The position numbers and the translations under genes are program-made. From positions 33,238-97,237 of the forward strand of contig CAYXSD010000002.1 of assembly GCA_964466335.1 (NCBI GenBank): a stretch of 64,000 bases of DNA. The letters are read 5' to 3'. Numbering within the stretch: position 1 is the first letter of the stretch; every line of letters begins with the position of its first letter. Of this stretch, positions 38,132-64,000 are shown piece after piece. This stretch comes from an uncultured Spirochaetales bacterium. Its GTDB lineage: Bacteria > Spirochaetota > Spirochaetia > SPDA01 > CAYXSD01. Under the pieces are notes generated by a model. It was not told the DNA's origin. It made no database searches and saw nothing but the letters and a program-made list of their open reading frames with translations.

Positions 38132-38230
38132 CTTCAATGCCGATGGCAGAGGTAATAAGAATAAAACGTGAGGTTCTTGCAAAATTGCTTAATTTTGAAA
38201 GCGGCTGACGTGAAAGAAGAGGAGCTATAA

Positions 38231-38596
38231 ATGAGTAAGAAAGTAATGTGTGTTGATGACAGTTCTACCATACGAATGCTTGTAAAAAAAGCCCTGGAAC
38301 CGGAAGGATTCGAAATCGTTGAAGCTGAAAACGGTCAGGACGGGTTGGACAAGCTCTCCGGTCAGGATATTAGTGTTTTTATCGTCGATGTAAACATGCC
38401 GGTGATGGACGGATTTGACTTTGTAAAGGAAATTCGCGGAAAGAGCGATTTCGCCTCCACGCCCATTGTGTTTCTTACTACTGAAAGCTCGGCCCAAAAG
38501 AAACAGATGGGAAAGGAACTTGGTGTGAATGGATGGATAGTCAAACCCTTCGACCCTCCCTCGCTGGTGAAGGTTGTCAACATGTTGGTTGGCTGA
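38231..38596 (+). CDS. cheY: Chemotaxis response regulator CheY
   Basis: 121 aa single REC domain (DD, D in IVDVNMP, T in LTTE, K in VKPF). It sits immediately upstream of cheA. Confidence 0.8.
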   Translation: MSKKVMCVDDSSTIRMLVKKALEPEGFEIVEAENGQDGLDKLSGQDISVFIVDVNMPVMDGFDFVKEIRGKSDFASTPIVFLTTESSAQKKQMGKELGVNGWIVKPFDPPSLVKVVNMLVG

Positions 38597-38616
38597 GGGG
38601 TATAGGCTGAAAAGCA

Positions 38617-49132: not shown

Positions 49133-51124
49133 ATGGAGTATAAAAGCGAGGTACTCGCGTTACTAAAATTGTACACGAAGCGTAATCGGAGTGCTAATCT
49201 CAATTTTACTGATTTTCTCGAATTTGTTGGAAAGTATGTTCAACAATACGCACAAAAACGACCGAAACTCGCCGCCCTTAAAGAAAACACCTCCCTGCAG
49301 GTAACGGTGGAATTGGAAGAGATGGCCACTCAAGGCATCTGCACCCTTACGTACGATGATAAGGGGAAGCTCTCCTCTCTCCATTTTCCCGGCTATTTCA
49401 AGTCGGTGGTGGAGCAATACTATGTAACAATGAAGGAAGACCCGGAAATGCTCTTTCCCGATGAGGAAAGGTTGAAGTTGGAGGTCCCGGGGGATTTGAA
49501 GACGGTATTAGACGTCAAAAACGATTTTCTCAACTTTCTTGGTTCCATGTCTTTGGACGATGAGAACAAAGTAATAAAAATTACCTTCCCGGAAGATTTG
49601 AAATCCATGATTATTACGCTTCCGGTAATGCGGGAAATGCTGCTTCAGCTCTGTGTAAAGAAAATGTCCCTCTTTTTTAACAAACAGAAAAATTTAAATT
49701 ACTACAGGAACAGACTCTATTCAGTGTTTGGAAATAAGAATATTACTGTTCAGGACCTCATTACCGGAATCGTTCAGGACCAGTCCAGGGTATACGATAC
49801 CTTTCGTTCCCCCAACGATTTTCAGTTTCGATTTTGGACAACCCTTTCAAATTTGATTATTAAAGATTACAAAGATAAAGCCAATAAACTCGAGGAGGAA
49901 CATGAGATTTGCCAGGCCTGTTACCTTTTGGGGTTCTACTGCGTATATTTTAGAAAGATGGAACAGAAGGAGAAGGAGGCGGAGGGGAGTTTAAGGGAAG
50001 TGGAGCGCCTCTTTCGAAAGGAGCCGTTCCTCTACACTCTTTCCGATATATACGGGTGCAAGGACAGTAAAGGCCTGCCCGTATTAAAGAACGTTTCAAG
50101 AGAGAGGATCGACACCTTTATATCGGAGAGGAGCTCAAAACAGGAGAAGGACAAACTTCCGGAAATTGTAAGGCTTAGGACCCCGGATAAAAAAGAATAC
50201 TATGTGAGAAAAGAAGCACTCTTAGGTATATTTGTCAATCGCCGAAAAGAAATGATCCAGAAGCTTAAAAGTAAATTCCTTCAGCGATGGGTAGGGGTCC
50301 TAAAGGAACACTCCACCTTAAAGGAGATGAAGGAGGAGAGGGCCTTTACGCAGAGCATCGATCAGGCCGTTAAAGAAGAGGACCCCATATTCTACAGTAT
50401 GCTCAATTTTAGTCTCCTTTTTCTGCTTAAAGATGAGGTAAATACCAGCTACAGTGTGGACCAGGAGTTGGAACAGGTCTTGGATCTTAAGAAACAGGAC
50501 CTCGTTTCCATCCCTCAGCTTTTTCAGCTTAACCGGGAGAAGCTCTATGCTGAAGCAAGGTCCCATCTCCCCTTTATGGAAACATTGCCCGTTATTGGGG
50601 GAATCGTAGTCTTTTTGAAAAGACTCTTTGGAGGGGGCAAAAAAAAGGGAAAGAAAGGTAAGACAGGTCCTTCAGAGAAAAATGGAACTGTCTCAGCTTT
50701 TGGCGGGAATGTAATTATGGGGGAAGGAAAGCCTATGGGAGGGGGAGAAAAAGGTACTGTTAATGTTAGGGCGACGGCAAAGAAGAACCGGGCGGAATAC
50801 ACAAAGCGTGTAGCCGAATTAAAGGTACATTTCGTAGGCAAGTCGACTCCCTTGGATCAGAGGCTTCAAGAACTCATTGACAAGTGGAACCATTTGATCG
50901 ATCCCACTGCCCGAGAGCATCTCGTGGAGGATGTCAACTCAGCGGTAAGGGCGTTTTTAAGAAGGAACAACTGGGGTTCCTCCAGCCGCACTCCTTCGGT
51001 GGAGGAGATCCAGAAAATGGCAATGAGATTGGCAGAAGACAGCATGTTTACCCAGATAAAGCGGAAAGATCCATTTTGGCGTTACCTTGAGGTGTACATT
51101 GTGAGGGTACTCTCAGAAAAATAG
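49133..51124 (+). CDS. Hypothetical protein, 663 aa, one internal hydrophobic segment followed by a Gly/Lys-rich stretch
   Basis: A long ORF with coding-like composition and no motif I can recognise. Confidence 0.4.
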   Translation: MEYKSEVLALLKLYTKRNRSANLNFTDFLEFVGKYVQQYAQKRPKLAALKENTSLQVTVELEEMATQGICTLTYDDKGKLSSLHFPGYFKSVVEQYYVTMKEDPEMLFPDEERLKLEVPGDLKTVLDVKNDFLNFLGSMSLDDENKVIKITFPEDLKSMIITLPVMREMLLQLCVKKMSLFFNKQKNLNYYRNRLYSVFGNKNITVQDLITGIVQDQSRVYDTFRSPNDFQFRFWTTLSNLIIKDYKDKANKLEEEHEICQACYLLGFYCVYFRKMEQKEKEAEGSLREVERLFRKEPFLYTLSDIYGCKDSKGLPVLKNVSRERIDTFISERSSKQEKDKLPEIVRLRTPDKKEYYVRKEALLGIFVNRRKEMIQKLKSKFLQRWVGVLKEHSTLKEMKEERAFTQSIDQAVKEEDPIFYSMLNFSLLFLLKDEVNTSYSVDQELEQVLDLKKQDLVSIPQLFQLNREKLYAEARSHLPFMETLPVIGGIVVFLKRLFGGGKKKGKKGKTGPSEKNGTVSAFGGNVIMGEGKPMGGGEKGTVNVRATAKKNRAEYTKRVAELKVHFVGKSTPLDQRLQELIDKWNHLIDPTAREHLVEDVNSAVRAFLRRNNWGSSSRTPSVEEIQKMAMRLAEDSMFTQIKRKDPFWRYLEVYIVRVLSEK

Positions 51125-51149
51125 GAGTTGTTCGAATAAAAAATCTGGA

Positions 51150-51716
51150 TTATTCTACTTTTCTATTTATTAAGTGAAGAAATTCTTGACGAGTAGTAAG
51201 ACTGCGCTTGAAGTTTCCCAGCACCGAGGAGGTGGTCATTACGGAATTCTGCTTCTCCACCCCCCGCATCATCATACAGAGATGGCGGCATTCCATAACA
51301 ACCCCTACTCCTTGGGCATCGGCCGTTTTTAGCACCGTCTCCGCGATTTCCGCGGTAAGGCGTTCCTGGATCTGCAGGCGCCTGCTGTACATATCAACAA
51401 TCCGAGCGATCTTTGAGACCCCTAACACCTGGTTTTCCGCAATGTACCCTATATGACACCTTCCGTAGAAGGGCAGCATATGGTGTTCACAGAGACTGTA
51501 CACCTCAATGTCCCGCACAATGATCATGTTGTTGGCTTCCGATTCAAAGACGGCGTCGTTTACAATATCATCTAGGTCCATCCTGTAACCGCTGGTAAGA
51601 AAATTCCAGGCTTTAGCCACCCTGTCGGGCGTGTTCTGAAGACCCTCCCTCTTAGGATCTTCGCCAAGTTCAATCAAAAGTTCGCGGATCAGTCTTTTTA
51701 CCTTTTCATGGTCCAT
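51150..51716 (-). CDS. folE: GTP cyclohydrolase I
   Basis: 188 aa with the FolE active-site region [18 protein letters not shown]. Confidence 0.85.
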
Positions 51717-51855
51717 AATGCTTCCTCTGTTTTTTGTCTCTGTTCCTTATGTGAGGGCTGTCCCCGTTAAGATGGAGAGAAATTGTATTCTGTCCTTATC
51801 CGATCGTAAAGTAAGAATAATCGGTACCCGGGATCAACCAATAATGCCTGCCGTG

Positions 51856-54546
51856 TTAGGCTTTTTCGACCTTCACTGCACAGACCTTGAACTCCGGTAT
51901 CTTCGCAATCGGGTCCAAGGCGTCATTGGTGAGGATGTTCGCGGCAGCCTCCTTGAAGTGGAACGCCATAAAGACGGAGCCCGGTCTCGATCGCTTTGTT
52001 ACCACCGCCCGGGCGGTAACGGTACCGCGGCGGGAGGAGATTCGTGCGTTTTCCCCATCTGATATTGCCAAGGCTTCCGCGTCGACGGGGTGAATTTCTA
52101 CAAACCCGTCGGGCCTTACTTCATCCAGTCCCTCTGACCTTCTTGACATAGTACCGGTGTGGAAGTGATAGAGGATTCTCCCTGTGGTGAGAGCATAGGG
52201 ATACTCCTCGTCGGGAAGTTCCGCCGGATCGATGAAGTCCACAGCACTAAACAGCCCCTTCCCTCTGGCAAAAGCGTCCTTATGGAGGTAGGGAGTGCCC
52301 GGGTGGTCCTTTGTGGGGCAGGGCCACTGGAGGCCCATCCTTTCAATCCGTTTGTGTGTTATTCCGCCGTAGATCGGCATAACCGAGTTAATTTCCTCCA
52401 TGATGTGACTGGTACTGTCGTAGCGCATAGGATACCCCATTCTGCTGCTCACATCGCAGAGAATTTCCCAGTCCAGGCGTGCTTCTCCCGGGGCGGGCCG
52501 AATCTCCCGAAGGAGTTGGACCCTTCGTTCAGTGTTGGTAAAGGTTCCGTCCTTTTCGGCAAAACTCGCGGCGGGGAGTACTACATCAGCATACTCAGCT
52601 GTATCAGAGAGAAAGATATCCTGAACAACAATGAACTCCATTGCCTCCAGGTCCTTCTTGACCCTGTTTATGTTGGGATCGCTTAGGAAGGGGTTTTCAC
52701 CCATGATATACATACCTCGTATGGAGCCGTCCTCTGCTCCATGAAGCATCTCTACCACCGTCAATCCCAGATCGGGCGAGAGCGAAGTCTTCCAGGCCTC
52801 CTCGAATTTCTTTTGAAGCATTTCGTCCGTGACCTTCTGGTATCCCGGATACACATTGGGAAGGGCCCCTAAGTCGCAGGCCCCCTGAACGTTGTTCTGG
52901 CCCCTTAAAGGATTCACCCCGGTGTGTTTTTTCCCAATATTCCCGGTGAGCATCGCTAAGTTAGCCAGACTCAAGACATTGTCCGTGCCCGTGGTGTGTT
53001 GGGTAATCCCCATGCTGTAAACGATAGAGGCGGTCCCGGCGGTCGCGTACATCCTAGCCGCTTTTACAATGTCCTCCGCCGGTACACCGCTAATCTCCGA
53101 GGCACGTTTCGGTTCGTACTTCAGAACAACTTCGCGGAACTGTTCATAGTTTTCCGTCCTCTCGGCGATAAACTCCTCATCCGCCAATCCCTCGTTGATG
53201 ATAACATTCATGATGCCGTTAAAAAGGGCAACATCAGTTCCCGATTTATGCCTCAACCAAAGGTCGGCGAAAGGGACCAGCCCGATCCGTCTGGGGTCCG
53301 CTACTATGAGGTTCCCCCCGTTTTTCTCCACTGCTGCTTTAATGTCCAAGGCAATAATGGGATGGGCCTCGGTAGTGTTGGACCCTGTAACCAAAATACA
53401 GTCGGCGTTCCTCAGTTCCGCCATGGAGTTGGTCATTGCGCCGGAGCCGAAGGCCCTGGCGAGACCGGTAACGGTGGAAGAGTGGCAGAGTCTGGCGCAG
53501 TGGTCCACATTGTTCGTGCCGATACAGGCGCGGATGAATTTCTGAAAAATGTAGTTTTCTTCGTTGGTGCACTTCGCGCTGGAAAGTCCGCCAATGGCGT
53601 TGGGGCCGTATTTTTCCTTGATCTTGGTAAGATTTTCCGCCGTGTAGCTTAAAGCCTCTTCCCAGGATGTTTCCTCGAAGGATCCGTTTCGTTTTATCAG
53701 GGGCTTCGTTAACCGTTCCGGATGATCGATGAATTCGGTACCGAATTTACCCTTCACACAGAGGTTCCCGTTATTGACAGTGTTTTTGTCCGGGGTGGTA
53801 ACCTTAACCAGTTTGTTCTCTTTGGTGTGCATCTCCAGGGTACAGCCGCAACCGCAGTAGGGGCAGATCGTTTTTTCGCTTGTAAGTTCCCACTCTCTCC
53901 CCTTACCGATACGGTTTTTCTCAATAAGCGCACCAACGGGGCAAACGCTTATACAACGTCCGCAGGAAACACAGGTGGTATCTTGGAGTTTTCGGTCGAA
54001 AGCAGTGGCAATGGTAGCGGGAAATCCCCGGGCTCCGATGTTTATAGCCCGATCGAATTGGACTTCATTGCAGACATAAACGCAGCGACCGCAGAGGATA
54101 CACTTGTCGTAATCCCGGACAATAAAGGGATCATCATCTCTGATACCCCTTTCATTTCGTTCACCCTCGAAGGAGGGGCGGGTAATACCGAATTCGTAGG
54201 CGTACTTTTCCAGGAGACAGGTACCGCTTTTTTCACAGGTAATGCAGTCCACCTTGTGGTCCGAGAGGATCAACTCCAGGTTGAAGCGTCTCGCGTTACG
54301 GACGCGTTCCGTATCTGTATGTACCACCATTCCCTCGGCGGCCGCGTGAGAACAGGATGCGGCGAGGGACCTCATTCCTTCTACCTCTACCACACAAAGG
54401 CGGCAGGAGCTCATGGGGGGGAGGTCTTCACCGTAACAGAGGTGGGGTATTTCCACACCGGCCTTTTTAGCTGCCCAGTAGAGGGTCACTCCATTCTGTA
54501 CTGAAATTTTCTTTCCGTCTATTGTTAATGTAATATTGCTGCTCAT
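51856..54546 (-). CDS. fdhA: Molybdopterin-containing formate dehydrogenase alpha subunit (FdsA/FdhA type, NuoG-like N-terminus fused to a MopB catalytic domain), Cys-type
   Basis: N-terminal plant-type [2Fe-2S] motif. A His-Cys3 [4Fe-4S] motif (HKVDCITCEKSGTC), two CxxCxxCxxxCP ferredoxin motifs and the MopB cluster CPYCGCGC follow. CARLCHSST aligns to the FdhF RVUHGPS active site with Cys in place of Sec. There is no in-frame TGA. Confidence 0.6.
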   Translation of the reverse strand: MSSNITLTIDGKKISVQNGVTLYWAAKKAGVEIPHLCYGEDLPPMSSCRLCVVEVEGMRSLAASCSHAAAEGMVVHTDTERVRNARRFNLELILSDHKVDCITCEKSGTCLLEKYAYEFGITRPSFEGERNERGIRDDDPFIVRDYDKCILCGRCVYVCNEVQFDRAINIGARGFPATIATAFDRKLQDTTCVSCGRCISVCPVGALIEKNRIGKGREWELTSEKTICPYCGCGCTLEMHTKENKLVKVTTPDKNTVNNGNLCVKGKFGTEFIDHPERLTKPLIKRNGSFEETSWEEALSYTAENLTKIKEKYGPNAIGGLSSAKCTNEENYIFQKFIRACIGTNNVDHCARLCHSSTVTGLARAFGSGAMTNSMAELRNADCILVTGSNTTEAHPIIALDIKAAVEKNGGNLIVADPRRIGLVPFADLWLRHKSGTDVALFNGIMNVIINEGLADEEFIAERTENYEQFREVVLKYEPKRASEISGVPAEDIVKAARMYATAGTASIVYSMGITQHTTGTDNVLSLANLAMLTGNIGKKHTGVNPLRGQNNVQGACDLGALPNVYPGYQKVTDEMLQKKFEEAWKTSLSPDLGLTVVEMLHGAEDGSIRGMYIMGENPFLSDPNINRVKKDLEAMEFIVVQDIFLSDTAEYADVVLPAASFAEKDGTFTNTERRVQLLREIRPAPGEARLDWEILCDVSSRMGYPMRYDSTSHIMEEINSVMPIYGGITHKRIERMGLQWPCPTKDHPGTPYLHKDAFARGKGLFSAVDFIDPAELPDEEYPYALTTGRILYHFHTGTMSRRSEGLDEVRPDGFVEIHPVDAEALAISDGENARISSRRGTVTARAVVTKRSRPGSVFMAFHFKEAAANILTNDALDPIAKIPEFKVCAVKVEKA

Positions 54547-54572
54547 GGTAACTTCCTTTTAACCTACTAGGA

Positions 54573-56366
54573 TCATGAAACTTTAATGGCATCGAAGCGG
54601 CATGTGCTTAGACACATTCCACACTTAATACACTTATCCTGATCAATGACATGGACCTGCTTCGCCTCCCCGCTGATTGCGTCGACGGGACAGGCCTTAA
54701 AACAGGCATGACATCCGGTACAGTTCTCTTCAACTACGGTGTACTGGATGAGGTTTTTACAGACCCCCGCGGGACAGCGTTTTTCTTTGATATGCGCGTC
54801 ATACTCATGACGGAAATACTTCAATGTGGTGAGCACAGGATTTGGGGCGGTCTGCCCAAGGGCACAGAGGGCGGAGTCCTTAATAGCGTAGGCGGCGTTT
54901 TCCAGGATCTCGATGTCTTTTTCCGTTCCCCGTCCTTCGCAGATTGCCGTTAAGGTTTCCAGCATGCGTTTGGTACCGATCCTGCAGGGGACACATTTTC
55001 CGCAGGACTCCTCCTGGGTAAAGGAAAGAAAGTAACGGGCCACCTCTACCATGCATGTGGTTTCGTCCATAACGATCATTCCGCCTGAGCCCATAATACA
55101 ACCGGCTTTTATAAGCGACTCGAAATCTACGGTGATGTCCAAAAGAGATTCGGGAATACAGCCCCCGGAGGGCCCCCCGGTCTGGACAGCCTTAAATTTT
55201 TTGCCGTTAGGAATACCGCCGCCAATGTCGTAGATAATCTCCTTCAAGGTTATTCCCATGGGGACCTCTACCAAACCGGTATTGTTGACTTTTCCCACTA
55301 GTGAAAAAACTTTGGTGCCTTTACTGGTTTCTGTTCCGATGGATGAGAACATCTCAGCTCCGTGGTGAATGATTCGCGGAACATTGGCGAAGGTTTCTAC
55401 ATTATTGATATTAGTGGGTTTTCCCATATAACCGGCTTGGGCGGGGTAGGGCGGTTTTACCCGCGGCTGGGGCAGTCGGCCTTCCAGGGAGTTAATAAGG
55501 GAGGTTTCCTCTCCGCACACGAAAGCCCCCGCTCCGCGATGGACAGAGAGATCAAAGTTGAAACCGCTTCCGAGGATGTCCTCTCCTAAGAGACCGTAAT
55601 CCCTCGCCTGGTCAATGGCTAAAAGGACCCTCTTCAATGCCAGGGGATATTCGTTTCTAATATAGATAAATCCCTCATGAGCACCAATAGCCCTGGCCCC
55701 GATAATCATTCCTTCTAAGACCGCATGGGGATCGGATTCCACGATGGACCGGTCCATAAAGGCACCGGGGTCCCCCTCGTCGGCGTTACAAATAATATAC
55801 TTCTCTTCGCCTGGCTGGTCTTTACAGATCTTCCACTTTCTTCCAGTGGGAAACCCGGCCCCGCCCCGGCCTCGGAGGCCCGAGTTAAGTATTTCCTCTA
55901 CTATATCATCCGGAGTCATCTGGGTAAGTGCTTTTGCCAGGGCTTTGTAGCCCTCGCGGCCTATGTACTCGTCGATACTTTCAGGGTCGACAATCCCCCG
56001 GTTTGCCAGGGCGATAAGGCGCTGTTTCTTGAAGAAACCGATATCGCTCATTTTGGGGATCGGGGCTTCCTCCTTGGAAGGAGTGTACATGAGTTTTGGA
56101 ACAGGCCTCCCTTTTAGGAAATGTTCTTCCACCAAATAGGGGATGACCTCCTCAGTGAGGAGTTGATAGAAAATTCCATCCGGCTGGACTACCACAATAG
56201 GACCGTTGGCGCAGAAACCGTTACAGCCGGTAGTAACCACTTGGATTTCATTTTCCAATTTATGCTTTTTTAGTTCTTTTTCCAGGGTCTCTTTGATCTC
56301 AAAGGCGCCGTTGGAAACACAACCGGTACCAGTGCAGACCATTAGGTTCATTCTATAACGTGCCAT
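54573..56366 (-). CDS. NuoF-like NAD(P)H-binding flavoprotein subunit (HydB/HndC/FdhB type) with an N-terminal [2Fe-2S] and C-terminal 2x[4Fe-4S]
   Basis: GRGGAGFPTGRKW supplies the FMN/NADH motifs and ESCGKCVPCRIG the [4Fe-4S]. The N-terminal thioredoxin-like Cys motif is MVCTGTGC...GCNGFC. The C-terminus carries CTGCHACFKACP and CIKCGMCLSTC. Confidence 0.8.
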   Translation of the reverse strand: MARYRMNLMVCTGTGCVSNGAFEIKETLEKELKKHKLENEIQVVTTGCNGFCANGPIVVVQPDGIFYQLLTEEVIPYLVEEHFLKGRPVPKLMYTPSKEEAPIPKMSDIGFFKKQRLIALANRGIVDPESIDEYIGREGYKALAKALTQMTPDDIVEEILNSGLRGRGGAGFPTGRKWKICKDQPGEEKYIICNADEGDPGAFMDRSIVESDPHAVLEGMIIGARAIGAHEGFIYIRNEYPLALKRVLLAIDQARDYGLLGEDILGSGFNFDLSVHRGAGAFVCGEETSLINSLEGRLPQPRVKPPYPAQAGYMGKPTNINNVETFANVPRIIHHGAEMFSSIGTETSKGTKVFSLVGKVNNTGLVEVPMGITLKEIIYDIGGGIPNGKKFKAVQTGGPSGGCIPESLLDITVDFESLIKAGCIMGSGGMIVMDETTCMVEVARYFLSFTQEESCGKCVPCRIGTKRMLETLTAICEGRGTEKDIEILENAAYAIKDSALCALGQTAPNPVLTTLKYFRHEYDAHIKEKRCPAGVCKNLIQYTVVEENCTGCHACFKACPVDAISGEAKQVHVIDQDKCIKCGMCLSTCRFDAIKVS

Positions 56367-56746
56367 TACGATATCCTTTCGCTTCCGATTGCCAGCGCGT
56401 AGTCTTCAACGATTTCTCCGCCCAATACATGTCCGGAGAAGATTTTCTTTACCTTATCGCTGTTTAAATCGATGTATTTTACCGGGGCGGAACCTTGAAT
56501 TTCAATAGTTGCCATAGGTTCTTTGCTGCAAAGCCCGGCACATCCGGAAGTGGTAAGAATAATGTCCTTGGCGTCCACATTCTCGATTTCATTCATAAAG
56601 GTGGTAAGGATTTCCCTCGCTCCCGAGGCAATGCCGCAGGTCCCCATGTGGACTGTAATCTTTACTCTTCCAGCTCCCTCGCGAAGCTGGGTGGTCGATC
56701 TCATATTCTGGCTTATTTTGTCCAGGTCTTCCGGTTTTAGCTTCAT
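56366..56746 (-). CDS. Small HndB/HydD-like thioredoxin-fold ferredoxin-like subunit
   Basis: 126 aa, translationally coupled (ATGA overlap) to the nuoF-like gene. Only three Cys are present (TCGIASG, SGCAGLC). The assignment rests on size and position. Confidence 0.45.
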   Translation of the reverse strand: MKLKPEDLDKISQNMRSTTQLREGAGRVKITVHMGTCGIASGAREILTTFMNEIENVDAKDIILTTSGCAGLCSKEPMATIEIQGSAPVKYIDLNSDKVKKIFSGHVLGGEIVEDYALAIGSERIS

Positions 56747-56750
56747 ACCA

Positions 56751-57194
56751 TTACTCCTTTTCCTCTTTATTGGTGTCCCTTGTATTCCTATATCTATAGA
56801 TAAACGAAATCTCCGGATGTGTGAACTCCATTACCCGGATTGTTTCGGCTAAATCCCCCATCGGTTTGCGGTCCGGGTGGCTCCACTTGAAAGTCGCTAT
56901 GAGGCGGGTCCCGCCACCTGTTTTGGATTCTACAACAAGTTTGCCTTCGGCGTCACGTGCCGATTGGGCCAATAGGGGGACCCCCAACCCGATTCGCTTG
57001 TTTTCCTTGGAGCTAAAGAAGGGATCGGTTACATTTTTCATTGTGGTCTCGTCCATACCTTCACCGTCGTCTATTATCTCCAATTTGAGGATGTCCGTTT
57101 CCTGGTCCTCTGTAACATCGATGGTGATGTTCTCCGCCCCGGCCCGGATCGAATTATCCACAATGTCCAGAATATGCAATGATATGTCCTCCAT
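56751..57194 (-). CDS. Stand-alone GHKL (histidine-kinase-like) ATPase domain protein
   Basis: 147 aa with HATPase_c N-, G1- and G2-box-like motifs (LDIVDNSIRAG, IIDDGEGMD, GLGVPL). There is no HisKA or DHp domain. Confidence 0.65.
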   Translation of the reverse strand: MEDISLHILDIVDNSIRAGAENITIDVTEDQETDILKLEIIDDGEGMDETTMKNVTDPFFSSKENKRIGLGVPLLAQSARDAEGKLVVESKTGGGTRLIATFKWSHPDRKPMGDLAETIRVMEFTHPEISFIYRYRNTRDTNKEEKE

Positions 57195-57202
57195 ACCTCT
57201 CC

Positions 57203-57949
57203 CTAAAACTGAATTGATGAAAGGATTCTCCTTCCTTCTTGTTCTTTCACCGCTAATTGAAGTTCTCGGACCGTTGGGGTTTTCAGGAGGAACTCCGTTT
57301 TTGTCGTTCCGATGTCTCTTGGCTCATGGGCATCGGAGAAGGTGACAAAGGGGAAGCCCAGCCCCTTAAACTGGAAGGGGGAATGGTTATAGTTTCTCGA
57401 AAGTTCCAAGGCGTCCAAGGCCGTGTCCTCCGGGATAATACCCAACTGGCTTATGATTCCGTAGGCCTCCCTGTCAATATGGGATGCAATAGCGATTCCG
57501 CCGAATTCGTGAATTTTGGTAACGATTGTTTCAAGTTCTAAATCTGTTGCTCCAATAAGAAGATGTTCGTTCAATCCCGTTATGTAATCCTCATGGTCTA
57601 CGATGTACTGAGGCCCGAAAATGTCAGGATTGTTATCGCCGGGAAGATGAGAATAAATAATCCTCTGCATTTCTTCCAAGCCTTCTGCATGATCGAAATC
57701 AAAGATCCCGAGGAGATGTATTTCAGACTGAGTGGTTATCTCCATTCCACCTAGCACGGTCAGGGACGTTCCCTCCGCCGCCCTCCGTACTGCCTGCCAG
57801 TTCTCCGAGGCATTGTGGTCGCAGATGGCAATGGCCTGAAGTCCAGCTTTCAGAGCAGCGGCTACAATAGTGGTGGGGACACTTTTAGAGGCGCCGCAGG
57901 GGGAAAGGCAGGTGTGAATGTGCAAGTCCATGGAGAACCTCTTAAGCAT
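57203..57949 (-). CDS. PHP-domain phosphoesterase
   Basis: MDLHIHTCLSPCG...AICDHN is the PHP metal-binding His motif. The start is set at M(LKRF) at 57949. The ORF-table start at 57997 overlaps the upstream gene by 56 nt. Confidence 0.6.
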   Translation of the reverse strand: MLKRFSMDLHIHTCLSPCGASKSVPTTIVAAALKAGLQAIAICDHNASENWQAVRRAAEGTSLTVLGGMEITTQSEIHLLGIFDFDHAEGLEEMQRIIYSHLPGDNNPDIFGPQYIVDHEDYITGLNEHLLIGATDLELETIVTKIHEFGGIAIASHIDREAYGIISQLGIIPEDTALDALELSRNYNHSPFQFKGLGFPFVTFSDAHEPRDIGTTKTEFLLKTPTVRELQLAVKEQEGRRILSSIQF

Positions 57950-58292
57950 CCTTCTGTCCGGGGAGCCCGGCTTTGTAGAGCCTTCCTGCCATCTCAAAGG
58001 CCGGGAGCCGGCTTACCAGTAGGGGCATCTTTTCCGATTTTGCCTTTTCCAGGGTCGCCTCTTCCGGCCTTCTGCCTCCAATAAGAACGATCCCGCTGAG
58101 TTCCTTCATTAGGGCTACAGCGACAATATTAATATGGATCTGCAGAGTAATCCAAAGATCGTCTTTTTGGGCGTTGCCTATGACGTCGCTTAAAAGATCG
58201 CTGGCGTATCCGCATCGCACTTCCCGATCGAGATCGGATTCACCGGACAGTACTTCCAGATCGAATTGTTCCACGATATCACTCAGTTTCAT
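57942..58292 (-). CDS. DRTGG-domain protein
   Basis: 116 aa. It resembles the DRTGG domain seen with CBS domains and phosphotransacetylase N-termini (LLSDVIGN...IVLIGGRRP...LLVSRL). It overlaps the CBS/GHKL gene by 4 nt. Confidence 0.5.
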   Translation of the reverse strand: MKLSDIVEQFDLEVLSGESDLDREVRCGYASDLLSDVIGNAQKDDLWITLQIHINIVAVALMKELSGIVLIGGRRPEEATLEKAKSEKMPLLVSRLPAFEMAGRLYKAGLPGQKDA

Positions 58293-59209
58293 GGTCCCTC
58301 CAGGGGAATTGTGCTCCTTAGGGTGGTCCCCTCTCCTACCATAGAGGTAATGGAGAATTCTTCGGAGTTTTTCTTGATGTTTGGCAAACCCATTCCTGCT
58401 CCGAACCCCAATTCCCTAATCCAGTCCGGTGCAGTGGAGTATCCCGGCATCATTACCTTTTCTATATCCTCAATACCGGGGCCCTTGTCGGTTATTTCTA
58501 TCAGAATCTTTTCCTTGTCGAGCTTTGCTTTAATTTTTCCTCCTCCCCCGTAGAGTATACAGTTCATCTCCGCCTCGTAAAACACTATGGACGCTCGAGT
58601 TACAATGTCGGGATGGATATTCAGATAGGAGAGATTTTTGCGGAATTTACTGGAAATTTCTCCTCCCACTTCGATCTTTCCCCCGGGTACGGAGTAAGAG
58701 AAGGAGAGTTCTGTGTGGTCCGAGACTACTTCATGAAAGAAGTGGAATTTGCTGAAATCTTCCATTTCTTTCTGATAGAAATCGATATCCAAGGCCTTTA
58801 ATAGGCAGATAATAACATCGAATTTGGTAATAACCCCAATAAGCAACCCGGTTTCTCGTTCTATTACCGGAAATTCATAGAACCGGTACTGTTCGAAATG
58901 TCTGATGGCTTCTACCAGGGGTTCATCGTCGAAGAGGGTCACCACATCCTTTGACATCCGGTGGGTCACCTCCACTTCTTCCTTCCCGTTCTGAAGCCAG
59001 TTAATGTAGTCTTCTACACTGATGATCCCTATGAGGTGTTTATCCTCAATCACCGGTGCGGCGGTGATCTTTTGGCTCCGCAGTATAGACCGGACCTCGC
59101 TCATTTTGGTGTCCTTGGAAATGGTGCAAACATCCAGCTCCACAGCGTCCCGTAATTTTAATTCGTAAAACAATTCCTGGACCTTGTGGATATGCTGTAG
59201 ACGCTTCAT
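58289..59209 (-). CDS. CBS-pair plus GHKL ATPase domain protein
   Basis: Two CBS-like motifs in the N-terminal half (ITAAPVIEDKHLIGIISVEDY, EFPVIERETGLLIGVITKFD). A C-terminal HATPase_c follows (ITDKGPGIED...GFGAGMGLPN...GEGTTL). Confidence 0.65.
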   Translation of the reverse strand: MKRLQHIHKVQELFYELKLRDAVELDVCTISKDTKMSEVRSILRSQKITAAPVIEDKHLIGIISVEDYINWLQNGKEEVEVTHRMSKDVVTLFDDEPLVEAIRHFEQYRFYEFPVIERETGLLIGVITKFDVIICLLKALDIDFYQKEMEDFSKFHFFHEVVSDHTELSFSYSVPGGKIEVGGEISSKFRKNLSYLNIHPDIVTRASIVFYEAEMNCILYGGGGKIKAKLDKEKILIEITDKGPGIEDIEKVMMPGYSTAPDWIRELGFGAGMGLPNIKKNSEEFSITSMVGEGTTLRSTIPLEGP

Positions 59210-59592
59210 GGAGTGCTGCTATAGTCCTTATTTCCGGTACAACCGACCATGCCGGCGCAGTAGAGCCTTCCACAGGCATCGAAAAGAGAGTAATCCGTTC
59301 TTATAAGGGGGACCTGGTTTTTCGTTGCCAATTCCATTGTTTCTTTGGGCGGGACCTTCCCGAAGACAAAACAGACAGCCGCAATTTCTACCATCTCCGC
59401 GGTCCTAATTGTTTGCGGATTGGTCAGTCCTGTAAGAAGGAGGGATTTTCGTTTGCTACTGGAGAGTATATCACTCATTAAATCGGAGGCATTAACGGAG
59501 GAAATAGGATGGGTAAGCCAGTTGTTGTCTATTAGTACCTCGGCGTCTAAAATCTCAAGGATGTTTTCCCAACTAAAGGACCTCTGCTGCAT
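59206..59592 (-). CDS. DRTGG-domain protein (second copy)
   Basis: 128 aa and similar to the 57942..58292 product (LMSDILSS...LLLTGLTNPQ...PLIRTDY). It overlaps the downstream gene by 4 nt. Confidence 0.5.
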   Translation of the reverse strand: MQQRSFSWENILEILDAEVLIDNNWLTHPISSVNASDLMSDILSSSKRKSLLLTGLTNPQTIRTAEMVEIAAVCFVFGKVPPKETMELATKNQVPLIRTDYSLFDACGRLYCAGMVGCTGNKDYSSTP

Positions 59593-59598
59593 AGGCTG

Positions 59599-60051
59599 TT
59601 AATCCTTATACTGTTTGAGGAGTCTTGAGACCTTTTTGGGATCGAGTTTTCCATGATACTCCCCGTCTATTACGGCCAGCGGCCCCAGGGCGCAGGCGCC
59701 CACGCAGTTGACTGTTTCCAGGGTAAATTTCCCGTCCTCTGTTGTCTCTCCCGCTTTAATTCCCAGGTTCCGTTCAATTTCTTCCACTACCTGAGCGGCC
59801 CCCCGAACGTGACAGGCCGTACCTACGCAGACAGCACAGTAGTGTTCTCCCATAGGTTCTAATCTCAGGGAAGCATAAAAAGTACAGAGGCTGTAGAGCT
59901 TGCTTAGAGGGACCTTCGTTTCCTCGGAGACTGTTTCGAGTTTGTCCTCCGGGATATATCCGTATTCCGAGGACATGTCCTGAAGAAGACCAATAAGCGA
60001 TGTTTTTCCAGATGTATAACCCTCTATAATTGTGTCAAGTGTGTCCGCCAT
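59599..60051 (-). CDS. NuoE-like thioredoxin-fold [2Fe-2S] subunit (HydC/HoxE/FdhG type)
   Basis: The Cys pattern is CAVCVGTAC...C(x4)C in VNCVGACALGP. A GGAGGA RBS lies 9 nt upstream of the ATG. It is the first gene of the operon. Confidence 0.75.
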   Translation of the reverse strand: MADTLDTIIEGYTSGKTSLIGLLQDMSSEYGYIPEDKLETVSEETKVPLSKLYSLCTFYASLRLEPMGEHYCAVCVGTACHVRGAAQVVEEIERNLGIKAGETTEDGKFTLETVNCVGACALGPLAVIDGEYHGKLDPKKVSRLLKQYKD

Positions 60052-60102
60052 TCTGCCTTATCCTCCATATGTAGTGATTAGCCTAAGGGCTAGACTCCAA
60101 TT

Positions 60103-60157
60103 TGTCAAGTTTCATTTTCTTTTCAGTCTCTTTCAAAATTAACCAATTTTGAAAGAG
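60103..60157 (-). promoter_or_regulatory. Putative promoter and upstream palindrome of the formate dehydrogenase operon
   Basis: On the minus strand there is a TTGACA (60103..60108) with a weak -10 (TAGGCT) 17 nt downstream. A perfect 13-bp inverted repeat, CTCTTTCAAAATT-N4-AATTTTGAAAGAG, spans 60128..60157 and is centred near -62. Confidence 0.35.
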
Positions 60158-60178
60158 GCTGATCCGCAAAGATAATAT

Positions 60179-61444
60179 TTATTTTTTTACCACCGGTTTT
60201 AAGTAGGCGCTCCAGTAACTCATTCCAACGAATAGTCCTCCTCCAATGATATTGCCTAGGGTCACGGGTATAAGATTGGCCGCTATGAAACTTCCCCAGT
60301 TTAATGCCCCGGCATCGTAGGCCGCCGGTGCGGCAACACCACCTAGGGTCTTAAGGATAATTCCCATGGGGATGAAGTACATATTGGCAATGCTGTGTTC
60401 AAAACCAATGGCTACGAAGGCCATAACAGGGAAGATCATAGCAAAGATCTTTCCAACCACCTGCCTTGAGGCAAGTGCCATCCACACGGCAAGGCAGACC
60501 AACCAGTTACATCCGATGGCCCGCGTGAGGGCTTCCACAAAGGAGAGAGATACCTTTCCGTAGGCAATATTCATAGCGGAGGCAGCTATGGCGTTTCCCC
60601 CGGTTTCCCAGAGTCCTGAAAAGAAGTAGAGCATGACGATAAATATCGACCCTATAAAGTTGGCCACATACACCACGCCCCAACGGGCTGCCATCTTTCC
60701 CAAAGTGATTTCTCCGGTCATGACACTGGAAATCATGAGGTTGTTTCCAGTAAAGAGTTCCGCTCCCGCAATGACCACGAGAATTAGTCCTAAACTGAAG
60801 ACGCTTCCACTCATGAACTTGGTAAATCCTGTCCCGAAATGGGAAGCCATGTCGAAGGTCACTGTGGTTGCCAGTACCCCCGCGAAGGCAATATAAGCCC
60901 CGGCAAGGACGGCAAGTACGAAAACGGACATCCAAGGGGAGGTAGTTTTACCGACTCCCACTTTTTGGGCTACCGTTTCGGCGATGGTTTTAGGAGAGTT
61001 GTCCTCCAGAGAGGGGGTGGGAAAGGAGACGGAACCGATCATGGATTTGGCCCGGTCTAGTTCTTTTTTCTCGTTTTCTATCTTCTTCTTTTGGGCCTTT
61101 TGTACCGCCTGGGTAATCTCCACCGGTGAAAAGGGCTTAGCAATGAAGTCTAAGGCGCCCCGCTTCATAGCCTCTGTCGCCCGGTCCACCGAGGGATAGC
61201 CGCTTATCATTACCACTGTTGATTCGGGAGAGCGGGTTTCAATTTCGGTAACCACATCCATGCCGTTAAATTCGGGCATCTGCCAATCGCAGAGAATAAC
61301 ATCGTAGAACGACTCCCCAATGAGTTTTAAGCCCTCCGTTGGGCTAGTGGTCGTAACGACTTCAAAGCCTTCGGCAGTAAAAATTTTGGAACATGAATCC
61401 AGCACTACCTGTTCGTCGTCGATAATCAACATCTTTTCTTTCAT
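60179..61444 (-). CDS. Response-regulator receiver domain fused to a formate/nitrite transporter (FocA/NirC family) channel
   Basis: The canonical REC motifs at residues 1-120 are DD, the acceptor Asp in ILCDWQMP, S in VMISGY and K in AKPF. Residues 170-421 carry FNT signatures (GAELFTGNN, GFEHSIANM, NLIPVTLGNIIGGGLFVG) and six hydrophobic helices. Confidence 0.8.
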   Translation of the reverse strand: MKEKMLIIDDEQVVLDSCSKIFTAEGFEVVTTTSPTEGLKLIGESFYDVILCDWQMPEFNGMDVVTEIETRSPESTVVMISGYPSVDRATEAMKRGALDFIAKPFSPVEITQAVQKAQKKKIENEKKELDRAKSMIGSVSFPTPSLEDNSPKTIAETVAQKVGVGKTTSPWMSVFVLAVLAGAYIAFAGVLATTVTFDMASHFGTGFTKFMSGSVFSLGLILVVIAGAELFTGNNLMISSVMTGEITLGKMAARWGVVYVANFIGSIFIVMLYFFSGLWETGGNAIAASAMNIAYGKVSLSFVEALTRAIGCNWLVCLAVWMALASRQVVGKIFAMIFPVMAFVAIGFEHSIANMYFIPMGIILKTLGGVAAPAAYDAGALNWGSFIAANLIPVTLGNIIGGGLFVGMSYWSAYLKPVVKK

Positions 61445-61540
61445 TTTTTGCTCCTCTTTGCTATCCCTGTAGTGTATGGTACAACCCTGCTTTTTCGGGC
61501 ATGGGTTATAAACTGATGTCCGTTTTGTCTTATTGCAGTG

Positions 61541-62164
61541 TTACCAAATTTCGGCGCTTAACTTCTGATTAAACCAGCGGCGCTGAACATCCGATAGAGG
61601 ACCTGTGTAACTTTCAATCCACTTCTGGTCCCCCGTTAGAAGGGCAAGCTTCTCTTGGGTGGTAAGATCATAGGGATCGAGGGCATCCACCTTTTTAGAG
61701 AATATTTCCTCTTCAAATATCGGGTCGGTGCCGAGCCGATCGAGGATGGAGAGGACTTCATCCTTATGTACCAGACCCTGCTTTTCCTGGGGTGTATCAG
61801 TTATTTTTGCTGTTGCCTTTTCAATTCTGGATAAAAGATCATCCGGGGAGAATGGTTTTTCTACGTAATCGGCGGCGCCCAACTTCATAGACTGCACTGC
61901 CGTATCAACGGAGGAGTACCCGGTAATAATTATGACCGGCAAGCCCGGCTTTTCCTTCTTAATTTCCCTAAGCACCTTCATACCACCGATTTCGGGCATA
62001 CGGATGTCCGAGAGCACCAAAGAGAATTCTTCCTTCAGCACCTGCTTAAGACCCTCCTTAGGGCTAAGAGAGGTGTGGACTTCGAAATCTCTCGATGTGA
62101 GGATCTTTTTTACACTGTCCAGAATAATCTGATCGTCATCTATTACCATTATTTTTCTAGCCAA
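61541..62164 (-). CDS. Response regulator with a receiver domain and an 85-aa C-terminal domain of unknown type
   Basis: The REC motifs are DDD, D in LSDIRMP, T in IITGY and K in EKPF. This REC is closely similar to that of the REC-FNT fusion. The C-terminal domain has no recognisable motif. Confidence 0.7.
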   Translation of the reverse strand: MARKIMVIDDDQIILDSVKKILTSRDFEVHTSLSPKEGLKQVLKEEFSLVLSDIRMPEIGGMKVLREIKKEKPGLPVIIITGYSSVDTAVQSMKLGAADYVEKPFSPDDLLSRIEKATAKITDTPQEKQGLVHKDEVLSILDRLGTDPIFEEEIFSKKVDALDPYDLTTQEKLALLTGDQKWIESYTGPLSDVQRRWFNQKLSAEIW

Positions 62165-62178
62165 GGATATATCCCTCC

Positions 62179-62556
62179 TTATGTATTTGTGTTTTCTTTG
62201 TGATTGTTAAGAATGTTATTGATAGCGTTTATTAGTTCTTCGGGAGTAAAGGGTTTTGGAATGTATTTCTCCGCTCCCGTGGACAAGCTGTGTCGAATGG
62301 TCTCTTCTGTGGAATAACCGCTTATTACCAATATGGGGATATGGGGAAAACGTTTCTTGCAGATAGAAATCAAATAGAGCCCGTCCTTTTCCGGCATTTT
62401 TATGTCCGCAATAATTAAACCTATTGAATGGTTCTCTAAGTTTTCCAGGGCCTCATCCACCGAGGAGGTGTAAAGGGATTCGAATTCAGTGTCCCGGAGG
62501 ATTCTCTTACAGCTTTCGATTACAATGGGATCATCATCGACAATAAGAATTTTCAT
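62179..62556 (-). CDS. Stand-alone receiver domain protein (CheY-like single-domain response regulator)
   Basis: 125 aa. The REC motifs are DDD, D in IADIKMP, S in ISGY and K in PKPF. Confidence 0.75.
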   Translation of the reverse strand: MKILIVDDDPIVIESCKRILRDTEFESLYTSSVDEALENLENHSIGLIIADIKMPEKDGLYLISICKKRFPHIPILVISGYSTEETIRHSLSTGAEKYIPKPFTPEELINAINNILNNHKENTNT

Positions 62557-64000
62557 GTAGTATCATCCTCCAAGGGCAGCCAGATGGTGAAGGTGCTTCC
62601 CTCTCCGACTTGACTCTTTACGTGAATGGATCCTCCGTGTCTTTCTATTATACCATAGGAAACGGACAAACCAAGGCCCGTACCTTTTCCAACTTCCTTG
62701 GTGGTAAAGAAAGGATCAAAGAGTTTTTTTAGATTTTCCTCCGGAATTCCGCATCCTGTATCGGCAATGGTTATTTCTATACCCCGCTTACTCTCCTTCT
62801 CGGTCGAAACGGCGATCCCGGTTCTTACATTAATATGCCCACCGTTGTCTACACTGTCTATTGCGTTAATGAGAACGTTGATTAGTACCGATTGAATTTG
62901 GTTTCTGTCCAGGGTTCGGGTGGGAAGGTTTTCTTTTAGATCGAAGCAGAGGATAGCCCCCTTCACCAGGGCCTGATTCTCGATAAGGGATATAGTGTCT
63001 CTAATAAGTTCGTTTATGTCCGTTTCCACTGGGGTAATTTCGGTTTGTCTTGAAAAGTCGAGTAACCCTTTTACAATATCCCGGACTCTCTCGGTAGCTT
63101 TGGAAATAGTCCGAAGGTCCTCCACAACATCTTCGGGAAGGTCTTCCCGTTTTAAAAGCATGTGGGTAAAGGTAAGCACTCCGGTTAAAGGGTTGTTTAT
63201 CTCGTGAGCTACCCCCGCTGCCAGTCTTCCCACACTGGCCTGCTTCTCCGACTGAAGAAGTTTTATTTCGCTTACCTCCCGCTGTCTGCGGTCCCTCTCC
63301 CGCAGGGAGGTTAGCATTTCCATAAAGGTCCGCTGGAGTATTCCAATTTCATCCTTGGAAATAGGGGCAATTTTGGGACTGAGGTCTCCCTCTGAAACCC
63401 GATGACTTGCCTCAATAAGCTGGTGCATAGGATGTAAGAGTTTTTTCCCCAAAAGAAAGGCGAAAGTTCCCGCTATGACCATTCCCGCCAGGGTTATAAG
63501 GAGGAAGAGTATGAAGGTGTTTTCCCGGATGTCTTGGTATTTCTCTTCGGTTATGCCGACATTGAGCATTCCCACACGCTTGTTGAAGATGTCGTATATA
63601 GGCTCATAGGCAGTGAGGAACCACCCGCTTACTACAAAAGCTCTTCCGCTCCAACGTTCACCCTGGAGAAGAACACTGTTTCGTACCTCCTTGGAGGCTC
63701 GCGTTCCGACTGCCCTGTGTCCTTCCCAGGCAAGGACATTGGTGGATATTCTGATGTCCTCTAAAAAGATGGTGGAATTTCCTACACTCTCTCCTCTATA
63801 GGTTTCTCCTCGGAAGACCGTCTCCTTCACCCTGTCTACTATAGAGTTGTCCTTATTAATAAGGACCCCGCCGTAGAGTATACCCACAAAAGTCTGGTCC
63901 TTGTAGAGAGGAACTGCAGAGGAGATGGTCATGCCCCTGGTTTCCCGGTCCTTATCGGAGGGCTCGGATCTTGGTGTATCTTTAACTTCTATGGCTGCTT
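62553..64000 (-). CDS. Membrane sensor histidine kinase, N-terminus beyond the window end, with extracytoplasmic sensor, TM, HAMP, HisKA and HATPase_c
   Basis: The HisKA H-box is [13 protein letters not shown]. The HATPase_c motifs include DTGCGIPEE and [12 protein letters not shown] helix and HAMP-like linker precede them, and the sensor region is Cache-like. The reading frame probably continues past 63932 to the window edge. Confidence 0.75.

Follow-up and report, generated by a model that had tools for sequence, protein, structure and literature searches.

Organization of the gene cluster

We analyzed a stretch of 64,000 nucleotides from an uncultured Spirochaetales bacterium (contig CAYXSD010000002.1, positions 33,238–97,237 of the forward strand), hereafter the window, near the end of which an earlier note, made from the sequence alone, had placed four co-directional genes: a Cache/HAMP sensor kinase, a stand-alone receiver, a receiver with an additional C-terminal domain, and a receiver fused to a channel of the formate/nitrite transporter (FNT) family. 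All four are indeed there, on the minus strand, and Pfam agrees with these descriptions. The order of transcription, taken from the list of open reading frames (ORFs), is the sensor histidine kinase (HK; 62553 to beyond 64000, truncated by the window end, 648 residues when complete), REC1 (62179–62556; 125 residues, consisting of Response_reg alone, 96.8 bits), REC2 (61541–62164; 207 residues, TTG start) and REC-FNT (60179–61444; 421 residues), in which a third receiver, REC3, is joined to a FocA-type formate channel. An operon for an NAD-linked formate dehydrogenase (FDH) follows directly downstream of REC-FNT on the same strand (51856–60051). What the sequence predicts is a two-component system with a channel as output together with an undescribed, channel-associated response-regulator domain, and this is what is new here.

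The HK stop and the REC1 start share the letters ATGA and thus overlap by 4 nt, as the earlier note had it; the overlap of 14 nt reported for REC1 and REC2 turned out to be a spacer of that length (62165–62178), which, read directly, contains GGAGGG at the proper distance from the TTG start of REC2. This start is supported by the homologues, which begin at the equivalent position with M-x-x-K-V-L-V-I-D-D. The gaps that follow measure 96 nt (REC2 to REC-FNT) and 127 nt (REC-FNT to the next gene). An exact-sequence look-up matched metagenome contigs with identical DNA, from microbial mats among other sources, and contig L001 equals the window sequence throughout the part that both share.

The receiver–channel fusion

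REC-FNT is composed of REC3 (residues 1–118, 61091–61444; Response_reg over residues 6–115, 95.9 bits), a linker delimited by the alignment to FocA (residues 119–156, 60977–61090) and the FNT domain (residues 157–421 plus stop codon, 60179–60976). The FNT domain passes the family thresholds of PF01226 (Form_Nir_trans, residues 160–411; 264 bits vs. 34.6) and TIGR00790 (fnt; 249.7 bits vs. 232.3), and stays below the FocA equivalog cut-offs (TIGR04060, 242 bits vs. 290.1; NF008069, 209.8 vs. 440). FocA is the best-scoring subfamily, with NirC lower at 110 bits. In a phmmer comparison with the Escherichia coli FocA structure 3kcu, residues 17–280 of the latter are aligned (E 3e-54) and the pore residues are retained, namely Thr232 (60749–60751, in GAELFTG), which corresponds to T91 of FocA, and His350 (60395–60397, in GFEHSIANM), which corresponds to H209. 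Residue 157 aligns to FocA residue 17, the receiver and the linker replacing the first 16 residues of FocA. According to the titles cited as references 66–67 in PMC11841067, the cytoplasmic N-terminal domain of FocA gates bidirectional formate translocation and binds PflB.

From the receiver to the first transmembrane helix (residues 119–165 here), 38 of 49 full-length homologues have a stretch of 46 residues (range 41–49), at identities down to 45%. Such a near-constant linker length suggests a structured coupling and not a loose tether. The fusion itself is widespread: at ≥65% identity it is carried by more than 120 protein clusters, every one with both Pfam domains, and full-length versions occur in metagenome-assembled genomes (MAGs) of Desulfobacterales, Spirochaetes, Planctomycetota/Phycisphaerae and Myxococcota. 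Databases have only two labels for proteins of the cassette, “formate/nitrite transporter” and the erroneous “DNA-binding NtrC family response regulator”.

The C-terminal domain of REC2

The receiver domain of REC2 (residues 1–122, 61799–62164; Response_reg over residues 5–115, 105 bits) is followed by a C-terminal domain (residues 126–207 plus stop codon, 61541–61789). These C-terminal ~85 residues have no match in Pfam, even when the isolated domain is searched at E ≤ 10. The architecture of 207–208 residues is kept over its full length among the homologues found, and the last 82 residues hold 21 invariant positions, including EKLAxLTGDxxWIE and a Trp as the final residue, giving the signature EKLAxLTGDxxWIE...G.L...W...AE.W at the C-terminus. 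AlphaFold2 models REC2 as a whole with a predicted local distance difference test score (pLDDT) of 88 and a predicted template modelling score (pTM) of 0.86, and the C-terminal domain alone as a five-helix bundle (pLDDT 85).

The fold of this model can be assigned, remotely, to the helical fold of the LigA/NHLP/Franean1_4349 superfamily (PF07746, PF14407). The gathering threshold of that superfamily is not reached, and the C-terminal domain from the window gives no match to it; PF14407 is matched by 9 of 22 homologues (best E 0.0023), with scores far under the threshold, and by a stand-alone relative at 29.5 bits against a cut-off of 48. A sequence-profile search of the PDB returned LigA and SonA chains at a non-significant E of ~1.6. 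A further PDB match, to PDCD10 (E 0.006 over 38 residues), was judged spurious. We describe the domain as a remote LigA/NHLP-like domain, the weak sequence evidence pointing in the same direction as the fold. It is not a known DNA-binding fold, an outcome that the earlier note had named as one that would refute its reading. It is an undescribed response-regulator output domain, and the earlier suggestion of a new output domain holds to that extent; its fold is not wholly unfamiliar, given the remote likeness to LigA and NHLP. In the open-access literature searched, neither a REC-FNT fusion nor a LigA-like response-regulator output is described, although a description may exist outside it.

The known members of the superfamily include LigA of protocatechuate 4,5-dioxygenase, DesB and the NHLP-type leaders (SonA, Os1348, PF14407). 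The domain described here differs from them in its below-threshold scores, its position at the extreme C-terminus, its invariant terminal Trp and its attachment to receivers or FNT channels. In the window cluster, and likewise in the related loci, neither LigB dioxygenase nor an enzyme modifying ribosomally synthesized and post-translationally modified peptides (RiPPs) was found, the neighbours being kinases, receivers, FNT, acetyl-CoA synthetase (Acs) and GNAT acetyltransferases; the window cluster has no methyltransferase either. Identity as a RiPP precursor is ruled out by the C-terminal position, the lack of a core peptide and the absence of modifying enzymes nearby.

A profile search of 1.84 billion representative proteins recovered the LigA-like domain in only 288 clusters, always at the extreme C-terminus, as a stand-alone protein of 76–145 residues, as REC-LigA, as REC-REC-LigA, as an iron–sulfur protein with two copies and as FNT-LigA. 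Because of gene fusion and gene neighbourhood, the domain is tied to FNT channels in four arrangements. Of 18 loci that were picked via REC-FNT alone, about 13 have REC-LigA immediately ahead of REC-FNT. The domain is fused to the C-terminus of FNT, as in P0344 from Dehalococcoidales; more than 120 clusters of such FNT-LigA proteins (≥67% identity, 445–462 residues) are found in Chloroflexota, many of them already annotated with PF14407 and PF01226. A stand-alone LigA-like gene of 76–95 codons directly precedes FNT-LigA in three independent loci. Finally, in a Phycisphaerae MAG a plain FNT gene and a stand-alone LigA-like gene coding for 76 residues share 4 nt. We consider it likely that the LigA-like domain and FNT channels act together in physical contact.

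In L168, L169 (7674–9380) and L170 (7691–9383), all from Chloroflexota/Dehalococcoidales, an FNT-LigA protein of ~455 residues behind a stand-alone LigA-like gene is labelled as formate/nitrite transporter only. The domain is also carried by redox proteins, as in the metagenomic P0251 (513 residues), a 4Fe-4S dicluster (Fer4_22) protein with two tandem C-terminal LigA-like domains.

The three receivers and their kinase

Residues known from phosphorylatable receivers are retained throughout: DDD at 7–9, D51, S79, Y98 and K101 in REC1 (phospho-acceptor Asp51, 62404–62406), D9–11, D53, T81, Y100 and K103 in REC2 (Asp53, 62006–62008), and DDE at 9–11, D53, S81, F100 and K103 in REC3 (Asp53, 61286–61288). 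With acidic pair, Asp, Thr/Ser, Lys and aromatic switch all in place, none of the three is a pseudo-receiver. Neither Pfam nor NCBIfam detects a DNA-binding domain in REC1, REC2 or REC-FNT, in line with what had been noted before. The σ54 AAA+ domain and the Fis-type helix-turn-helix (HTH_8) are absent after the receivers, and the match to the NtrC family is confined to the receiver part. No Hpt domain was found by Pfam or NCBIfam in the four proteins of the cassette; a multi-step His-Asp-His-Asp phosphorelay is ruled out by the lack of Hpt in the cluster.

The window holds a separate chemotaxis set (36812–41193, plus strand) consisting of a methyl-accepting chemotaxis protein, a CheY-like receiver (38231–38596), which served as a receiver control, and CheA (38617–41193, plus strand), which has two Hpt stretches, the only ones in the window, and a CheW domain.

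REC2 and REC3 are 44–45% identical to each other, and REC1 is 31–36% identical to either. Since two unrelated receivers of the window, taken as control, reach 23–32% with the cassette receivers, close to the values of REC1, close paralogy by overall similarity is limited to REC2 and REC3. The earlier statement that all three are clearly paralogous is thus sound for this pair and marginal for REC1. The same division applies to the motif GYSSVD..A...G...KPF(S/T)P that had been proposed as common to them: it fits REC2 and REC3 well and REC1 loosely (GYSTEE...KPFTP), its KPF being generic to receivers. On a wider sample, mean identities amount to 53–72% within each receiver class, 35–41% between classes and 25–27% to outgroup receivers. 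Group means were used here since in the neighbour-joining tree of the receivers class monophyly was not clean, the automatic class labels being imperfect for distant Planctomycetota. On these sequence comparisons the three appear as old, separately conserved paralogues. A recent tandem duplication is ruled out, orthologues (53–72%) being closer than neighbours (35–41%). The nearest solved structures to REC3 are the receivers of NtrC1 and DctD, and all three receivers can be assigned to the NtrC lineage.

The α1 helix usually carries most of the kinase-specificity residues of a receiver, a relation reportedly established in work of Skerker/Laub and Casino/Marina. In the cassette receivers this helix reads PIVIESCKRIL, QIILDSVKKIL and QVVLDSCSKIF, and its consensus, x(I/V)VL(D/E)S(C/V)(R/K)(R/K)(I/V)(L/F), is near-identical in the three classes (54, 90 and 54 orthologues); the other two receivers of the window differ (STIRMLVKKAL and PINLDFFDVML). 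A common α1 helix would fit a single kinase feeding several receivers, and the conserved gene order of the cassette points the same way, if indirectly.

HK residues 168–648, that is, the 481 C-terminal residues, are encoded in the window, the frame being open to the window end. Recovery of the N-terminus from flanking sequence, which the earlier note had proposed, was achieved with L001 (6002–7948): the complete kinase has 648 residues, and the missing 167 N-terminal ones include the first transmembrane (TM) helix. Hydropathy places the TM helices at residues 12–30 and 329–347, with an extracytoplasmic sensor region of ~300 residues between them. Pfam identifies sCache_3_3, HAMP, HisKA (58 bits) and HATPase_c (96 bits). 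On the minus strand of the window the order is Cache (63522–63863), TM2 (63459–63515, by hydropathy), HAMP (63297–63455), HisKA (63042–63230) and HATPase_c (62568–62909). The phospho-acceptor His432 (codon 63204–63206) lies in the H-box AHEINNP, with an HExxN phosphatase motif; the protein thus has both the His box of a dimerization and histidine phosphotransfer domain and the HATPase_c domain of a two-component kinase. Its catalytic core is nearest to AtoS (228 bits) and ZraS (185 bits) in NCBIfam, both scores being well under the equivalog cut-offs, and to the ZraS structure 9jfj (E 2.5e-41).

The cassette in other genomes

With the channel gene complete, the order HK, REC1, REC2-LigA, REC-FNT was found on at least 22 independent contigs, and in about 10 further cases it is cut off at the contig edge; it also occurs in MAGs of several phyla, and the habitats are sediments and microbial mats. 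Because the same order recurs in independent contigs, the gene cluster is more than a chance arrangement. The idea that the set would be conserved and co-occur with fdh is borne out in its first part. As to the second, of the 27 REC-FNT loci flanked by 8 kb or more, only 7 have fdh within 10 kb, so the linkage is frequent, not obligatory.

Several variants exist. Of 50 co-directional cassettes, about 44 have a REC1 orthologue between kinase and REC2 and about 6 lack it. Two REC-LigA paralogues are present in L007, L009, L020, L090 and L092, REC1 and REC2 are fused in P0124, P0126 and P0358, and in L086 the kinase is without a Cache domain and has Rex ahead of it. In an uncultured Planctomycetaceae MAG (L012, 4405–6702), a protein of 765 residues has a receiver fused to NuoE-like and NuoF-like parts (2Fe-2S_thioredx, Complex1_51K, NADH_4Fe-4S), with REC-FNT in the same cluster; with this protein, the flavoprotein module of an FDH or hydrogenase would itself carry a receiver.

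Surroundings of the cluster

The downstream operon was annotated from ORFs and Pfam, including precomputed Pfam assignments on the identical contig L001. All its genes are on the minus strand: NuoE-like (59599–60051), DRTGG-like (59206–59592), CBS+HATPase (58289–59209), DRTGG (57942–58292), PHP (57203–57997), HATPase_c (56751–57194), 2Fe-2S-like (56366–56746), NuoF-like (54573–56366) and a NuoG/FdhA-type molybdopterin formate dehydrogenase (51856–54546). The six small genes between the NuoE-like and the NuoF-like gene (56366–59592) resemble a second, kinase-like regulatory layer, and the same six-gene set, from DRTGG-like to 2Fe-2S-like, stands ahead of FDH in the Atribacteria locus L083.

Between 59500 and 64000, predicted σ70 promoters and intrinsic terminators occur at chance level, with none in the minus-strand gaps. 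Rfam gave no match at E ≤ 0.1 over 50000–64000, hence no molybdenum cofactor or other riboswitch. Beyond the window end, upstream of the kinase, L001 has an AT-rich divergent intergenic region of 290 nt (5711–6001) with two long palindromes, TTATAATTCATTATAAT/ATAATGAATTATAA and CACTTTCAAAAT...ATTTTGAAAGTG, as candidate operator sites; the gene divergent from the kinase encodes an NTP_transf_3 (MobA-like) protein. Elsewhere in the window, on the plus strand, an ORF of 663 residues with no significant Pfam match (49133–51124) is flanked by a HAD hydrolase gene on one side and the fdh operon end on the other, and a response regulator of 248 residues (9373–10119) has a receiver at residues 11–126 and ~120 more residues that give no Pfam match at E ≤ 1e-5.

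Proposed mechanism and alternative explanations

The reading that we favour, by a slight margin over even chances, is that of a conserved four-gene two-component cassette with a channel output, placed at the front end of a cytoplasmic NAD-linked FDH operon, in which phosphorylation would gate or tune the channel. Control of formate flow would then probably act on the proteins themselves and not on the expression of their genes. In outline, the Cache domain would sense an external small carboxylate, most likely formate, and the kinase would phosphorylate all three receivers, a single kinase being proposed for them because the α1 specificity helix is common to them. The phosphorylated receiver of the channel would shift the N-terminal segment so that the pore opens, closes or reverses direction. 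REC2 would act in trans as a phospho-switched adaptor that brings or withdraws its LigA-like domain, and this domain, docked to the cytoplasmic side of the channel or to a partner located at that side, would serve as a second gate or coupling device. REC1 would compete for phosphoryl groups and so set gain and timing; that it is a phosphate sink is possible, if on the doubtful side. The net result would be that formate flux is adjusted, on a scale of seconds, to the formate dehydrogenase whose genes lie downstream.

A number of observations weigh against this reading. Receivers usually dimerise and FNT channels are pentamers, which makes for a symmetry mismatch. The fold assignment of the REC2 domain is remote, with Foldseek E-values of 0.87 or worse. 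The metagenome loci L087–L166 were chosen through the LigA-like domain, so that counts from them are biased toward its presence. REC2 is missing from the REC-FNT loci L005, L008 and L085. REC2-LigA, for its part, occurs with no FNT nearby in L157, L162, L101 and L139, where a GNAT acetyltransferase and Acs adjoin, and these contexts are the strongest argument against FNT as the exclusive partner: since REC-LigA occurs there with GNAT/Acs and no FNT, the LigA-like domain may bind a non-FNT partner, or it may simply oligomerise. In L161 and L125 a REC3-type receiver is unfused and followed by Acs, L125 having also a YaaH/SatP acetate channel. Moreover, in Planctomycetota and Myxococcota an orthologous Cache-HAMP kinase stands in a divergent operon with an NtrC-type σ54 activator. 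A transcriptional branch thus exists in relatives and in this genome could be encoded elsewhere.

The arrangement in L157 (754–5551), L162 (3–5186), L101 and L139 is REC-LigA followed by GNAT, Acs, a PAS histidine kinase and a receiver, and REC-LigA may there take part in the control of Acs acetylation. An “acetate” cassette in L125 (5317–13089) and L161 (5316–10387) runs HK, REC1, REC-LigA, unfused REC3-type receiver, acetyl-CoA synthetase, and continues in L125 with a GPR1/FUN34/YaaH (SatP-type) channel and a Rex-like repressor.

The alternative that survives best, unlikely as we hold it to be, is a mainly transcriptional one: the chief partner of the kinase would be an NtrC-type regulator elsewhere in the genome, the three receivers would only modulate that pathway, as sinks or as competitors, and REC3 on the channel would do no more than tether phosphate-buffering capacity at the membrane. 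That the main output could be transcriptional follows from the pairing of the kinase with a σ54 activator in Planctomycetota and Myxococcota, where the operon of the two adjoins the REC-LigA and REC-FNT genes. The orthologous kinase shares an operon with a REC-σ54-AAA-HTH_8 regulator in L011, L013, L014, L016 and L018, the full architecture being present in L011 and L016, and such a regulator is also near in L086 and L125; the AtoS/ZraS lineage of the kinase core and the NtrC lineage of the three receivers agree with this. On the other hand, the surrounding DNA of this organism, over 6 kb on the upstream and 10 kb on the downstream side, encodes no NtrC-type regulator. A search for the σ54 promoter TGGCAC-N5-TTGC with up to two mismatches gave 27 matches against 32 expected, none of them in the intergenic regions of the cluster, and the fixed-length linker and the widely conserved REC-FNT fusion argue that the channel itself is an output. 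The two explanations are not mutually exclusive. For the earlier view of a post-translational rather than transcriptional system, this means that it agrees with receivers devoid of DNA-binding domains and is weakened by the σ54 activator paired with the kinase in these two phyla.

Slightly less probable is a scaffold, in which the LigA-like domain only self-associates and REC2, with no contact to the channel, assembles a metabolon or regulates FDH, Acs or GNAT. Paired domains would suit it, be it the two REC-LigA paralogues of the five loci named above, the stand-alone copy next to the FNT-fused one or the tandem pair on P0251, and so would the occurrence of REC-LigA with GNAT and Acs and no FNT; the FNT-fused copy might merely recruit the free one. 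Against this, only one copy of the domain is present in the window, and in two phyla the domain is physically linked to the channel, by C-terminal fusion to FNT or by overlap of the FNT and LigA-like genes.

Very improbable, finally, is a reversal of the signal, with FNT as a co-sensor (transceptor) whose occupancy or flux is reported via the receiver and REC2 to the kinase and whose output lies elsewhere, e.g. in the DRTGG/CBS-HATPase/PHP proteins: co-sensing by transporter and kinase is known for C4-dicarboxylate sensors (DctA and DcuB shape DcuS signalling), single-domain receivers of the DivK type can regulate kinases allosterically and the operon has a second signalling-type gene set (56751–59592), but the receivers retain every residue required for phosphate acceptance, the kinase owns a large extracytoplasmic Cache sensor and we know of no precedent for a receiver relaying a signal back from a channel.

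Returning to direct control of the channel, a wider version can be put forward, tentatively and with somewhat less than even confidence: a two-component kinase directly gates an anion channel, the second receiver delivers a channel-binding LigA-like domain in trans, the receiver set is a general small-carboxylate gate that has been reused for acetate, and the LigA-like domain is a hitherto unrecognised regulatory subunit of FNT channels in at least five phyla.

Relation to known systems

The E. coli FocA/PflB pair shares with the cassette the channel family, FocA residues 17–280 being aligned with T91 and H209 kept, and control at the cytoplasmic N-terminus, the attachment site of the receiver here. 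FocA, however, has a short N-terminal peptide of ~30 residues controlled by enzyme binding, in place of which a full phospho-receiver is found; pflB is absent from the neighbourhood, where a cytoplasmic NAD-linked FDH is the partner enzyme. The role proposed for REC2-LigA resembles that of GlnK toward AmtB in logic only, as a small, covalently switched cytoplasmic signal protein whose gene lies beside the channel gene. The families are unrelated, GlnK is uridylylated or adenylylated whereas here an Asp would be phosphorylated, and the trimeric GlnK has the symmetry of its trimeric channel AmtB, while in the cassette a receiver meets a pentamer and binding of REC2 is only proposed.

Branched pathways such as CheA to CheY/CheB, the Sinorhizobium CheY1/CheY2 sink and Myxococcus RedCDEF likewise have one kinase, several receivers that do not bind DNA and, as proposed here, a post-translational output. 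They differ in that the kinase of the cassette is a transmembrane HisKA protein and not CheA, in that there is no Hpt, CheW or chemoreceptor coupling, and in that one receiver is covalently part of a channel. AtoS/AtoC and ZraS/ZraR provide the best NCBIfam and PDB matches for kinase core and receivers, and AtoSC also handles short-chain acids; the receivers here are without σ54 AAA+ and HTH_8, and the sensor is a Cache domain. By descent, as far as the sequence matches tell, the cassette groups with the AtoS/ZraS–NtrC systems and with FNT channels, membership among the NtrC regulators being excluded by the missing AAA+ and HTH.

Significance

To our knowledge, the interaction of PflB with the N-terminus in enterobacteria is the only control of an FNT channel that has been studied, and the switching of these channels between formate export and uptake is still debated. 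If the proposed mechanism is true, a phospho-switch in the N-terminus of an FNT channel would give structural and flux work an on/off handle via phospho-mimic and phospho-dead variants. A membrane channel and a new small domain would join the outputs of response regulators, and the cassette would be a compact example of one kinase feeding three receivers. In sediments and microbial mats, formate is one of the main currencies in which electrons pass between species. Rapid control of formate traffic by a sensor, beside a cytoplasmic NAD-linked FDH, would bear on how such organisms switch between formate production and consumption.

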